From assembly GCA_026991575.1 (NCBI GenBank), contig JALXBF010000176.1:1-35527 (forward strand): DNA of 35,527 bases, in the 5' to 3' direction. Shown here in pieces: positions 12,139-26,231 of this stretch (position 1 is its first letter; the number at the start of each line of letters is the position of its first letter). The stretch comes from Planctomycetota bacterium (GTDB taxonomy: Bacteria > Planctomycetota > Planctomycetia > JALXBF01). The position numbers and the translations under genes are program-made. The notes below the pieces were generated by a model that had not been told where the DNA came from, did not search any database, and saw nothing but the letters and a program-made list of their open reading frames with translations.

Positions 12139-12495
12139 GTTTGCCGAGTGCTGGGACGTGGTGCACTGGAGGCGAGCAAGCAAAGAGCCGGTTCGCCGTG
12201 CCGTGCGACCCGGTCCCAATGCGCTGTTCCCCAGGCATGGCGCGTCCGCTCGGCTCACTGACGCGGCGTCTGCGGCCGTACACGCGACCGATCCGATCAC
12301 GTACTCCGGGCCTATCGAGCCGATTGACCTTGGCCCATCGGAACGATCGATGCCATCTGCCGCCGTGATTCTGGCCGGTCGCAAGCGGACGCCCTGGCCA
12401 GACACCGCATTGGTCGGCCAAGACCGACGGCAGGCCGCGCGGGTGGGGCGGTTGCCATTGCAGCAAACCGCCGCGTGTGGCAAACTGCTGCCGCC

Positions 12496-13725
12496 GTGAC
12501 GAAGAGAGACACCTGCGATCCAAAACAATCGGTAGTCGGCCGCCGTTTGCTCCTGGCAGCAGCTATGGCCACCGTGGTCCTGTCTGCAGCGGGGTGTGCC
12601 CGGCCCAGGCCGATCAGCTTCCGCTGGCCGTGGGCCCGTTGGCAGTCGGGCGACGGTGCCGAGACGCGTGCGCACGGTGGGCGGCCCCGGCGGTTGGCCT
12701 CCCTGGAGCCGATCTTGCTGGCTGATGCGACGGAGGACGGCCACGCCGGCGTGAAGCAGGCCGCTGGCGCGACACGGTCAGCCAAGGACACAGAGGTCAT
12801 CTCGACCGTCGTGGCACGGGTTAATGGCGAGCCGATCGTGGCCGAGGACCTGCTTGCTCCGCTCCGCAGTCGGCTTGCTGAAGCACGGCAAACGATGAGC
12901 AAGGCCGAGTACATTGCGTTCCGGGACCGGTTGCTTCGCCAGCAGCTGGACAACCTCATCGAGCGGCAGCTTCTTGTGCAGGCGGCACGCCGAGCGTTTC
13001 CCGAGCCGATCCAGCGGCGGATTGAGGCGTTTGCGGATCAGCAGTTCGAAGAGCAGCTCAAACAGGAGGCCAAGCGGCTCGGGCTGGCTACGGTCGAGGA
13101 ACTGAAGCAGCATCTGCGCAAGCAAGGGCAATCGGTTGAACGGATGAAGCAGCTCAACCGTGACACGATCCTGGCCCAGCAGTTTGTCCGCTCCCGGGTT
13201 GCGAGCAAGATCGAGGTGACACGGCGTGAGATGCTGGAGTACTACCGGGAGCACAAGGCGGAGTTTGAGCAGACGCCAGCTGTGAAGTGGCGCGAGATCC
13301 TTGTCAGTGTTGCGCGGCACAGTTCAGACGAGGCGGCCCGGCGGCATGCGGAGCAGTTGGTGTCTAAGCTTCGGGCCGGCGCCGACTTCGGTGAGCTTGC
13401 CAAGCAGGAAAGTGACGGCGCGACGGCGGCTCAGGGGGGACAGTGGCCGTGGACGCCTCCCGGCAGCTACATTGTCGATGCGGTGGATCAAGCACTGTTC
13501 AGCCTGCCGGTGGGCCAGGTGAGTGATCCGATTCCGGGTCCGGAAGGCTACCACATCGTGCTCGTCGAGGACCGGCGCGACGGAGGGCCGCGTCCCTTCG
13601 AAGAGGTGCAGGACGAGATCCGCGAGCGGATCCGGCAGAAGAAGATCGAGCAGGCCGTTTCTCAGCTCATCGAGCGGCTCAAGCAAGAAGCCTACATCGT
13701 TACCGTCTTCGATACGGCCGACTAG
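12496..13725 (+). CDS. SurA/PrsA-like parvulin peptidyl-prolyl isomerase/chaperone, predicted lipoprotein
   Basis: VVARVNGEPI...LIERQLL SurA-type N-domain and parvulin domain (FGELAKQESDG, GQVSDPI, GYHIV). Lipobox AAGC with Cys at 12595. Start uncertain (12475, 12496 or 12565). Confidence 0.88.
   Translation: MTKRDTCDPKQSVVGRRLLLAAAMATVVLSAAGCARPRPISFRWPWARWQSGDGAETRAHGGRPRRLASLEPILLADATEDGHAGVKQAAGATRSAKDTEVISTVVARVNGEPIVAEDLLAPLRSRLAEARQTMSKAEYIAFRDRLLRQQLDNLIERQLLVQAARRAFPEPIQRRIEAFADQQFEEQLKQEAKRLGLATVEELKQHLRKQGQSVERMKQLNRDTILAQQFVRSRVASKIEVTRREMLEYYREHKAEFEQTPAVKWREILVSVARHSSDEAARRHAEQLVSKLRAGADFGELAKQESDGATAAQGGQWPWTPPGSYIVDAVDQALFSLPVGQVSDPIPGPEGYHIVLVEDRRDGGPRPFEEVQDEIRERIRQKKIEQAVSQLIERLKQEAYIVTVFDTAD
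12595..12633 (+). other. Post-lipobox peptide CARPRPISFRWPW (copy 1)
   Basis: Direct translation; 9 of 10 residues identical to the motif in the BamD-like gene. Confidence 0.8.
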
Positions 13726-24067: not shown

Positions 24068-24853
24068 ATGAAAGGACAGGCCACCGAAGCCATCGTGCTT
24101 CGTTGCAGTGAGTTTCGCGAGAGCAGCCTGGTGGTGCAGCTGTTCACGCGGGAGTTCGGCCGTGTGGCCGGTTTAGCCAGGGGGGCTCGGCGGCTGAAGC
24201 AGTACCGTGCGGGCGCTCTTGACCAGCTCTGCGTATCGCGTATAGTCCTGCGGCGCCGCAGCAGCAGAGGCCTTGCGCTCATTGACGAGGCCAGGTTGCT
24301 GCAGCCGTTTGAGCCGCTGACGCTGCCGTACCGCGCAGCGCTGGCCGGCTTCCTGGTCGCCCGGCTGCTGCTGGATTTTGTGCGCGAGGGGCTGCCCCAA
24401 GCGGACGTTTTCCGCGCGGCGGTGGACACGCTTGCTACGATCCGCTCCGGCGGAAACTGGGAGCTGCGCGCGCACCGCTTCGTGTGGGAACTCATTGTCT
24501 ACAGCGGCTACGGCCCACGGCTGGACCGATGTGCCCGCTGCAACAGACCGCTCCCCCGAAGCGGACGGCTTCGCTTCTGTCCGTTAGCTGGCGGCTTGCT
24601 CTGCCCGAGCTGCCCGCCGCTGTCGCGCGTTGCAGCAAGTCTGTCGGCGGGTACCGCAAAGCTCCTGGGGCACCTGACCGACGTGACGACCACGACCTGG
24701 CAGTCGCTGCGCGTGCAGGAGCGACTGAACCGCGAGCTGTGGCGCGTCGAAGCGGCGGTGGTCCGGGCGCTGGCCGAGCAGCCAGTGCATGTCATGACGT
24801 TGCTTGCACCGCCGCCGGCTCGGCAGCGGAACCGGGTGGCAACTACGGCGTGA
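24068..24853 (+). CDS. recO: DNA repair protein RecO
   Basis: OB-fold start AIVLR...ESSLVVQLFTREFGRVAGLARGARR and Zn finger GYGPRLDRCARC...CPSC. Confidence 0.92.
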   Translation: MKGQATEAIVLRCSEFRESSLVVQLFTREFGRVAGLARGARRLKQYRAGALDQLCVSRIVLRRRSSRGLALIDEARLLQPFEPLTLPYRAALAGFLVARLLLDFVREGLPQADVFRAAVDTLATIRSGGNWELRAHRFVWELIVYSGYGPRLDRCARCNRPLPRSGRLRFCPLAGGLLCPSCPPLSRVAASLSAGTAKLLGHLTDVTTTTWQSLRVQERLNRELWRVEAAVVRALAEQPVHVMTLLAPPPARQRNRVATTA

Positions 24854-24887
24854 ACTCGACCCCACGTCGCTTCGGCAGGACGAGGGC

Positions 24888-26231
24888 ATGGTGACGTTGC
24901 ACGGAGGCCGCACAATTCGGCAACTGATCGTCTGGACCGTCGCTCTCTGCTGCTGCTGCGGCGGCTGTGCCGGCGGACCACGCCCGATACGCTTCCGCTG
25001 GCCCTGGCAGCAGCCCTCCGCGGTACCGGCCCAGCCGGCCGGCGGCTTGCACGAATATGAGCTGCGCAATGGCCGATGGGTGCGGCGCGAATCGGTCCGC
25101 CCGATGCCACCCGCACTCAGGCGGGCTGAAGCACTCATCCAGGAGCAACGCTACGACGAAGCGATCAGCCTGCTGGACGACACCATCGATGCCGACGACG
25201 AAACACCCGGTGCCGTCCATCGCTACGGGTTGTTCCTGCTGGCAGAGGCGTATTACTGGAAAGGCGACCTCGTCGCCGCGCGGACCCACTACGAGAAGCT
25301 ACTGGACCGGTATCCCGGCACCGAGGAGGCACTCACCGCGGCGACACGCCTGTACCAGATCGGCACGCGTTGGTTGGACGCTGCAGCCAACGACGATACT
25401 CAGCCGGCCGGCATGCTACGGCGCATCGCATTCTGGCGCCAGAGCGACCGGCCTTGGATCGATGCGGATGGCCATGCGATCAAAGTGCTCGAATACATCC
25501 AAGAGCACGATCCCGGCAACCCGCTTGCCGACGATGCCATCCTGGCCATTGCCAACTATCAGTTCCGTCGCGGGAACTTCGAGCAGGCTGCCTTCTACTA
25601 CGACCTGCTGATCCAGGGTTACCCGAAGAGCGAACACCTGGCACACGCCTACCTACGGGCGGCTGAGGCCCGACTCGCCCTGTATGACGGCGCCGAGTAC
25701 AACGCGAAGCCGCTCGAAGAAGCACGCAGGCTACTGCAAACGGCAGCCACCCAGTTTCCGGAACTGGCGGACCAGCGGCCGCGCATCTACGAAATGCTCC
25801 ATCGCATCGAGGAACGGCAGGCGGAGCGGGACTTTCAGGTGGCGCGGTTCTATGAGCGCATCGGCCGGCCCGACGCAGCCAGAGTCTACTACCAGCTCGT
25901 CATCCGCGACTATCCCAAGACATCGTGGGCCCAGCGAGCACGGCAGCGATTGGAGGAGCTGGGGCTCGAACAACAGGGGCCTCAGCCCAAACGGCTCTCG
26001 GACCTGCTCGATGAACTCGTGCCGTCGCTGGCGGAGCGCTTTGGCCTTGAACCCGATGAGGCCCCGGCCGACCCGAATGCCGGTGACGAGGCGCGGCCTA
26101 GTCCGGGTACTGACGCTCGGAGCGCGGGTGAGAGCGACACTCTGTTGCGCCGGCCCGAGCTAACGCCGACGTGGCCGGGGACCGTTGCCGAGCCGGGCCC
26201 TCTGCCTGGCCCACCGGGAGGGCTGCCATGA
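24888..26231 (+). CDS. bamD: Outer membrane protein assembly factor BamD-like TPR lipoprotein
   Basis: Lipoprotein-type signal, TPRs and BamD-like C-terminal AERDFQVARFYERIGRPDAARVYYQLVIRDYPKT. Acidic/Pro-rich tail. Coupled to an lptE-like gene. Confidence 0.82.
   Translation: MVTLHGGRTIRQLIVWTVALCCCCGGCAGGPRPIRFRWPWQQPSAVPAQPAGGLHEYELRNGRWVRRESVRPMPPALRRAEALIQEQRYDEAISLLDDTIDADDETPGAVHRYGLFLLAEAYYWKGDLVAARTHYEKLLDRYPGTEEALTAATRLYQIGTRWLDAAANDDTQPAGMLRRIAFWRQSDRPWIDADGHAIKVLEYIQEHDPGNPLADDAILAIANYQFRRGNFEQAAFYYDLLIQGYPKSEHLAHAYLRAAEARLALYDGAEYNAKPLEEARRLLQTAATQFPELADQRPRIYEMLHRIEERQAERDFQVARFYERIGRPDAARVYYQLVIRDYPKTSWAQRARQRLEELGLEQQGPQPKRLSDLLDELVPSLAERFGLEPDEAPADPNAGDEARPSPGTDARSAGESDTLLRRPELTPTWPGTVAEPGPLPGPPGGLP
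24966..25007 (+). other. Post-lipobox peptide CAGGPRPIRFRWPW (copy 2)
   Basis: Direct translation; matches the motif at 12595-12633. Confidence 0.8.

Follow-up and report, generated by a model that had tools for sequence, protein, structure and literature searches.

Why should two lipoproteins of unrelated families carry nearly the same ten-residue peptide at nearly the same distance from the lipid anchor? The question is raised by a stretch of 35,527 nucleotides (contig JALXBF010000176.1, positions 1 to 35,527, assembly GCA_026991575.1; below, the window is this whole stretch) from a Planctomycetota bacterium, which encodes, 12 kb apart and both on the + strand, a SurA/PrsA-like parvulin lipoprotein (12496..13725) and a BamD protein (24888..26231). 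The mature part of the SurA-like protein starts with C-AR-PRPISFRWPW, that of BamD with C-AGG-PRPIRFRWPW. The two peptides (mature residues +4..+13, 12604..12633, +, and mature residues +5..+14, 24978..25007, +) are identical at nine of ten residues, the sole difference being Ser/Arg, and they begin one residue apart with respect to the lipobox cysteine. The match had been noticed in an earlier inspection of the letters without database searches (the sequence-only reading), which saw in it a candidate for a lineage-specific tether or sorting signal; its coordinates and letters were correct, and both the nine-in-ten match and the near-equal distance from the cysteine were reproduced. We find that the peptide is a short linear motif restricted to one bacterial family, in which it is carried by two lipoproteins of the β-barrel assembly machinery (BAM) pathway.

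The shared peptide and its two carriers

The likeness is limited to the peptide and is held at the protein level. The DNA of the two motifs is identical at 24 of 30 bases; five of the six differences are synonymous (they lie within CCC/CCA, AGG/CGC, ATC/ATA and CCG/CCC), the remaining one, in AGC/CGC, being the Ser/Arg difference, whereas the flanking 30 bases on the two sides match at 8/30 and 6/30 positions, i.e. at background level. Given the synonymous differences and the unrelated flanks, neither a recent duplication nor an artefact of assembly accounts for the likeness. The argument of the sequence-only reading, that the codon differences imply selection on the protein rather than a recent copy, thus holds, and it is reinforced by the conservation in orthologues described below. 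The match is not due to chance either. In a crude genome-wide list of 269 candidate 30-residue sequences following a lipobox cysteine (many of them false positives), which gave 36,046 pairs, identity at eight or more of ten positions was found only for one pair of paralogues and for the SurA-like/BamD pair. The rarity-weighted score of the latter, 38.8 bits, exceeds the highest of 40 shuffle maxima (31.2; mean 28.2, sd 1.2).

Both cysteines are probably lipidated, as judged from the sequences preceding them. In the SurA-like protein the open reading frame (ORF, 12475-13725) opens with GTG 12475, and its context reads ...VVLSAAG-C-ARPRPISFRWPW-ARW. GTG 12496, chosen by aligning the N-terminus of the orthologue from the only other GTDB species of the same family (G001; the genome under study is G000, P numbers denote proteins and L numbers loci), is the likely start, which gives a putative signal peptide with the lipobox LSAAG|C at 12496..12597 (+; cysteine codon 12595-12597). 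The gene call on record (P0004) begins at ATG 12565, only ten residues ahead of the lipobox cysteine; this start is doubtful because ten residues are too short for a signal peptide, and the orthologues favour GTG 12496 or an earlier codon. The BamD ORF (24804-26231) probably starts at ATG 24888 and has the context ...CCCCGG-C-AGGPRPIRFRWPW-QQP, the putative signal peptide (24888..24968, +) ending in GG|C with the cysteine codon at 24966-24968. Four consecutive cysteine codons (TGC x4, 24939-24950) stand directly ahead of GG-C, and the choice of the cysteine after GG as the putatively lipidated one is based on the orthologues. In the SurA-like orthologues a hydrophobic stretch is followed by [GA]-C (WLSGC, GASGC, TVVGC), and the BamD orthologues have FCLGC, SAVGC and LSAC. 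True starts downstream of the motif, a possibility that would have removed it from the proteins, are excluded, since the orthologues keep a signal peptide and a lipobox ahead of it.

The carriers belong to unrelated families, parvulin/SurA_N and YfiO/TPR respectively, as the sequence-only reading had said. The SurA-like protein has a parvulin domain (PF13145, E 2e-20; PF00639, E 7e-18), and stays below the cut-offs of the Pfam SurA_N models (23 vs 27.2 bits). A search of the PDB by Foldseek with its AlphaFold2 model (predicted local distance difference test score, pLDDT, 86; alignment of 45 sequences) returned chains of E. coli SurA at the top (9hg5_F, E 7e-14; 1m5y), with a SurA-like protein of Leptospira and PrsA next in rank, so that the model predicts an N/C chaperone module of the SurA type. 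We use the label SurA/PrsA-like because neither NCBIfam equivalog cut-off was reached (SurA NF008038, 55.8 vs 394 bits; PrsA NF002827, 62.6 vs 343). The protein shares the SurA/PrsA fold with PrsA-type foldases and SurA but, unlike the soluble two-parvulin SurA, it has a single parvulin domain and a lipobox, and used as a query it found no second match elsewhere in the genome. BamD scored above the cut-offs of TIGR03302 (93.4 vs 81.4 bits) and PF13525 (YfiO, 42.2 vs 25), and was also matched by Pfam TPR models. The genome has one Omp85/BamA gene, with five POTRA-like repeats, on contig C100.

In the motif the hydrophobic residues ([ILV], [FLI], W, W) occupy positions i, i+2, i+4 and i+6, and the basic residue and the prolines occupy the others. 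Read as a strand, the peptide is amphipathic with a single hydrophobic side; its net charge is positive and it has no acidic residue. Between +2 and +19 the SurA-like protein has three Trp, four Arg and no acidic residue; BamD has two Trp and three Arg. Because pLDDT is low in the AlphaFold2 models of this part of both proteins, the motifs are placed at the membrane end of predicted disordered tethers, which comprise mature residues 1-69 of the SurA-like protein (12595..12801, +; pLDDT <50), the fold of which starts around residue 72, and mature residues 1-27 of BamD (24966..25046, +; pLDDT ~50, alignment of 42 sequences). In the BamD model strands at residues 28-43 are followed by TPR helices up to residue 358. 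These strands (25047-25094) form a predicted beta hairpin, HEYELRNGRWVRRESV, which is conserved in the family, has similar stretches in G001-G003 and appears to be an N-terminal addition. Neither motif docks on its own protein in the monomer models.

Distribution in the genome and in related bacteria

Within the genome the combination of lipobox and motif is confined to the two proteins. A six-frame scan for F.WPW gave 15 matches, only two of which, SurA-like and BamD, follow a lipobox, and a looser scan, in which W-P-W-type strings were sought behind any hydrophobic stretch, gave 83 matches, with the motif found after a lipobox nowhere beyond the same two. Four of the 83 come from propeller proteins, which start with the unrelated WP.W[RG]G. 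On contigs C76, C146, C156 and C181 several secreted proteins have a mature part that opens with W-P-x-W-[RG]-G-[PT], a start which we take to be typical of PQQ-like beta-propeller proteins and which is unrelated to the motif. Of the 269 crude lipoprotein candidates two carry the motif.

For comparison GTDB offers a single further species from the family (G001), besides two species from the order; three more SurA-like orthologues and two more of BamD come from metagenome proteins. All four SurA-like orthologues of the family have the motif in the form PRP[ILV]x[FLI][RK]WPW, with W-P-W always at +11..+13. Next to the protein of the window these are P0005/P0038 (79% identity, C-SGPRPLTLRWPW), P0006 (62%, C-VRPRPVHIRWPW) and P0007 of G001 (60%, C-TGPRPIRLKWPW). 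The core hydrophobic-x-hydrophobic-[RK]-W-P-W is thus conserved at fixed spacing from the cysteine. Of the four BamD proteins of the family two keep the core, one has a degenerate form of it and one lacks it. Besides BamD of the window it is found in P0025 (70%, C-ATPPTGVTFRWPW), where FRWPW stands at the same positions with PPTGV upstream in place of PRPI. P0026 (69%, C-SIPIRPPALPWPS) has the degenerate form L-P-W-P-S, with W12-P13 at the same positions, and P0027/P0040 of G001 (49%, C-RFSSKLPLGPLRPSRG) has no Trp there and lacks the motif. In the orthologues that keep the motif the rest of each tether has diverged.

Outside the family the motif was absent from all 28 further SurA-like and all 28 further BamD loci. 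G002, from the sister family, has in its SurA-like protein a related string with the residues rearranged, RPRWTSFWKR. When a profile built on six N-termini was searched against 5.8 billion proteins (E up to 10, 6300 candidates), only its six inputs were recovered. An exhaustive hmmsearch with a profile of two sequences against 1.84 billion representatives gave two matches with E<=0.001, both motif-unrelated proteins with internal repeats, and was insensitive, as it missed the motif's own family. At the DNA level the pattern C-x2-3-P-x-P-x4-WPW matched 205 of 401 genomes of the class, which is uninformative, being about the rate of the reversed control; a stricter pattern matched at least 119 stretches of genome contigs, and a lipoprotein signal ahead of the match was found in none of the 80 loci read. 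A scan of metagenome loci for BamD found only P0026, which was already known.

The lineage specificity suggested by the sequence-only reading is therefore upheld: one family only, with the motif in 4/4 SurA-like and 2/4 BamD proteins, the further loci from other families being without it. The picture suggested by these sequences is that the motif is old in the SurA-like protein of the family and was gained later by BamD of one sub-branch, and that the BamD copy of the window came to resemble the SurA-like version upstream of FRWPW as well, the codons not being shared.

What the motif might do

The reading that we favour, with a probability of roughly 40%, is that the motif is an interfacial membrane pin which co-localises the SurA-like protein and BamD. 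It would pin the first dozen residues of each tether to the membrane in which the lipid anchor sits, on its periplasmic face. As an extended peptide it would have a hydrophobic face (I/L/V, F/L/I, W and W), with Arg/Lys and Pro on the opposite face, and 3 to 13 residues from the acylated cysteine the segment would rest in the head-group interface, the Trp rings inserted and the Arg residues on phosphates. The outcome would be a second, short-range anchor of fixed geometry, through which BamD and the SurA-like chaperone would share one membrane micro-environment, with the body of the chaperone staying free on a further linker of ~55 residues. We infer both the membrane insertion of the Trp face and the co-localisation with BAM. 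The other half of the proposal in the sequence-only reading, a membrane-docking peptide that could bring chaperone and BAM complex together, would likewise fit the evidence. In line with a pin, both motifs are unstructured and undocked in the AlphaFold2 monomer models, and the SurA-like protein of G002 has its rearranged version of the peptide. The distance between cysteine and motif is kept without insertions or deletions (W-P-W at +11..+13 in 4/4 SurA-like proteins, at +12..+14 in the two motif-bearing BamD proteins). The best calculated interfacial partitioning energy of a 10-residue segment was -4.6 kcal/mol for the SurA-like protein and -1.7 kcal/mol for BamD, whereas the 134 candidates that were kept have a median of +0.9. 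By its composition the motif appears to fit the cationic, Trp-rich class with favourable interfacial partitioning. Indolicidin, a Trp/Pro/Arg peptide with W-P-W twice, is described in PMC13429792 as disordered in water, with Trp buried in bilayers and Arg/Lys at the interface. Peptides of this type resemble the motif in their W-P-W units and net positive charge, and the predicted disorder and putative interfacial Trp insertion of the motif would correspond to theirs; they are free secreted host-defence peptides, whereas here we have a segment of two bacterial lipoprotein tethers, and homology is not claimed.

BamD tethers of the class as a whole point in the same direction. They tend to have Trp and basic residues close to the anchor, with a Trp between +2 and +14 in 13 of 24 cases, compared with 7 of 51 control candidates of the genome under study, and their mean aromatic count is 1.25 vs 0.55 (Mann-Whitney p 0.0017, a value to be read in the light of the fact that related genomes are not independent). 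Such loose conservation of aromatic residues, at the level of composition, would be typical of membrane contact. Among the BamD loci L032-L060 there are also family-specific tether forms, C[QH]S[FW]..FRER in family f7 and P[LFI]..WR..YD in f5.

Several points weigh against the membrane pin. In other families the SurA-like tethers show no enrichment of aromatic residues (Trp in 2/17, p 0.18). A triacylated cysteine is already a stable anchor, and it is doubtful what would be gained by a weak second one, most of all for the SurA-like protein, whose body is on a flexible linker of ~55 residues. A generic pin might be commoner than two in 269 candidates. Finally, W-P-W is invariant in six sequences and BamD of the window also has the PRPI match, a precision that would suit recognition by a protein better than contact with lipid.

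This last point leads to a reading close to the former one, which we regard as possible but somewhat unlikely: the motif may be a docking strand that extends a sheet at its edge, either in BamA, where a POTRA domain close to the membrane or the rim of the barrel could serve, or in a different component of BAM; both tethers would thereby be fastened to BAM where they begin. There is a precedent in E. coli, where, according to PMC11366764, six unstructured N-terminal residues of SurA dock on the edge strand of POTRA-1 by beta augmentation, and their deletion is about as severe as deletion of surA. The strict two-residue periodicity of the motif, with prolines on the parity opposite to the hydrophobic face, and the invariance of W-P-W and of the basic residue in six sequences are consistent with such docking, as are the restriction to two proteins which are both of the BAM pathway and the upstream match between GPRPIRFRWPW in BamD of the window and GPRPIRLKWPW in the SurA-like protein of G001, which exists in spite of different codons; docking would also explain what a chaperone on a long linker gains. 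On the other hand, the positional counterpart of the E. coli residues seems to be not the W-P-W motif but DTEV[ILV]ST (mature residues 65-71 of the SurA-like protein, 12787-12807; DTEVIST in the window), which is conserved directly ahead of the first core strand in 4/4 family orthologues, is unstructured in the model and lies ~55 residues downstream of the motif. Moreover, in G001 the motif is present in the SurA-like protein and missing from BamD, which means that it need not occur in both, and in known systems BamD already binds BamA via its TPR domain. A complex prediction with mature BamA 40-797 (15-row alignment) and residues 1-40 of the SurA-like tether gave a score of 0.00, which weighs neither way. 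The peptides of E. coli SurA (residues 23-28) and of this planctomycete family are alike in being short, unstructured, N-terminal, outside the folded core and part of the BAM pathway (PMC11366764). They differ in that the former lies directly ahead of the core of a soluble protein and the latter follows a lipid anchor ~55 residues before the core, is rich in Trp, Pro and Arg and is also present on BamD. A third possibility involving the same partners is that the overlapping aromatic-x-aromatic elements F-x-W and W-P-W, set in an alternating hydrophobic strand, resemble a strand or the beta signal of an outer-membrane protein (OMP), and that the tethered copy fills the client site of the SurA-like protein or the signal site of BamD/BamA, regulating or coupling them. 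The motif fits the pattern of the peptides favoured by E. coli SurA, Ar-X-Ar and Ar-X-Ar-X-Pro, with hotspots within that chaperone's core and P1 domains (PMC11401910). Nevertheless this client mimicry is improbable: the AlphaFold2 monomers show neither motif docked on its own protein (pLDDT <50 and ~50), F is replaced by L or I in three of four SurA-like orthologues, which leaves W-P-W as the only aromatic-x-aromatic element, and the SurA-like copy of G001 stands without a BamD copy. A bolder version, a membrane-anchored OMP-strand mimic plugging the sheet edge or lateral gate region of BamA or the client site of the chaperone, is a long shot to which we give slightly more credit. If it were true, one and the same plug would couple both the chaperone and BamD of this planctomycete family physically to the insertase, as this lineage's own counterpart to the docking of E. 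coli SurA on POTRA-1, and the motif would be a natural peptide ligand of BAM.

Sorting by the lipoprotein transport machinery, the role suggested in the sequence-only reading, is very unlikely, and as a general sorting or retention signal we regard it as the least likely reading of what the motif does. It would agree with the position directly after the lipidated cysteine and with the fixed spacing; furthermore, the genome, which is 97.8% complete, gave no match to LolA (PF03548), and its highest-scoring LolCE-like permease (C113:10204-11694) reached 183 bits vs a curated cut-off of 362, so lipoprotein transport may be unusual here. A sorting signal should recur, however, and this one does not: it is present in 2/269 candidates, only 2/15 F.WPW matches follow a lipobox, the profile search returned its six inputs only, and LptE, an outer-membrane lipoprotein encoded beside BamD, does not have it. 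BamD of G001 must reach the same membrane without the motif. Residues at +2/+3 which cause Lol avoidance are lipoprotein sorting signals, and known signals lie at about +2 to +5 and mark whole classes of lipoproteins; the planctomycete motif is basic and aromatic, extends over +4..+14 and is found in two proteins. The export signal of Bacteroidetes (PMC5080379) is likewise a short peptide right after the lipidated cysteine whose position matters, but it is acidic and many surface lipoproteins have it at their N terminus. That the motif has no function at all, and that the two genes match by chance or because a short gene conversion left a neutral relic, is scarcely credible. One contig does carry both genes at a distance of 12 kb, and they share just 30 bases; against this, the score is ~9 sd over the shuffle maxima, the five synonymous differences and unrelated flanks speak against a recent copy, FRWPW is kept between BamD of the window and P0025 though most of the surrounding tether differs, and all four SurA-like orthologues have the motif, even at 60% identity.

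The motif differs from post-lipobox sorting signals and from the docking residues of SurA in where it sits, in its chemistry and in its distribution. To our knowledge no such tether motif is known in the SurA/PrsA families, and full-text literature searches did not find a description of it. What is known of the retention of chaperones at BAM comes largely from Proteobacteria, and the envelope of Planctomycetes is unusual. A selected peptide common to the sole SurA-type chaperone and to BamD of one lineage offers a compact, testable handle, since an element of ten residues is open to mutation, to transplantation onto reporters and to use as bait. It also indicates that the usually ignored post-lipobox tether can hold specific information beyond the +2/+3 sorting positions. 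It must be noted that the weight of these considerations is limited by the material, seven sequences from one uncultured family.

Other tether peptides and the neighbouring gene

Each family seems to keep a tether peptide of its own. SurA-like lipoproteins of other families have a different conserved tether motif, [DNAH]-P-V-x-G-P-P-P-P-R, with Gly at +14 or +15 from the cysteine (L006, L011, L014, L016, L017, L019, L021 and L023 of family f6, L015 of f3, and P0008, P0009 and P0011), which BamD does not share in those genomes. The f5 SurA-like tethers (L020, L022, L024, L026, L027) have the form P-V-x-x-x-(V/L)-P-(S/P)-(I/L/V)-(H/T)-(D/S)-(T/V)-I-N-(R/H)-G. An echo across the two proteins, F-x-x-W-x-P-(P)-W-S-K-K-[ES]-A near the mature start, was seen in L018 (SurA-like protein of G005) and in L053/L056 (BamD of G017/G022, another family), and proved to be within shuffle noise in an ungapped test. 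A tether vocabulary common to SurA-like and BamD proteins across families (F..W.PWSKK; VLGPPP; DVQQVSY) was considered and dropped, as it did not exceed the shuffle maximum of 29.0. In the same test only the pairs of BamD of the window with the SurA-like proteins of its own genome (40.1) and of G001 (34.7) exceeded this value.

Downstream of BamD lies the gene of LptE, in which the sequence-only reading had seen a weak echo of the motif, CGYTTRPPF; the string is present, but it has only R-P-P and an F in common with the motif. The stop codon of bamD overlaps the start of this gene (ATGA, 26228-26231), which suggests that bamD and lptE may be translationally coupled.

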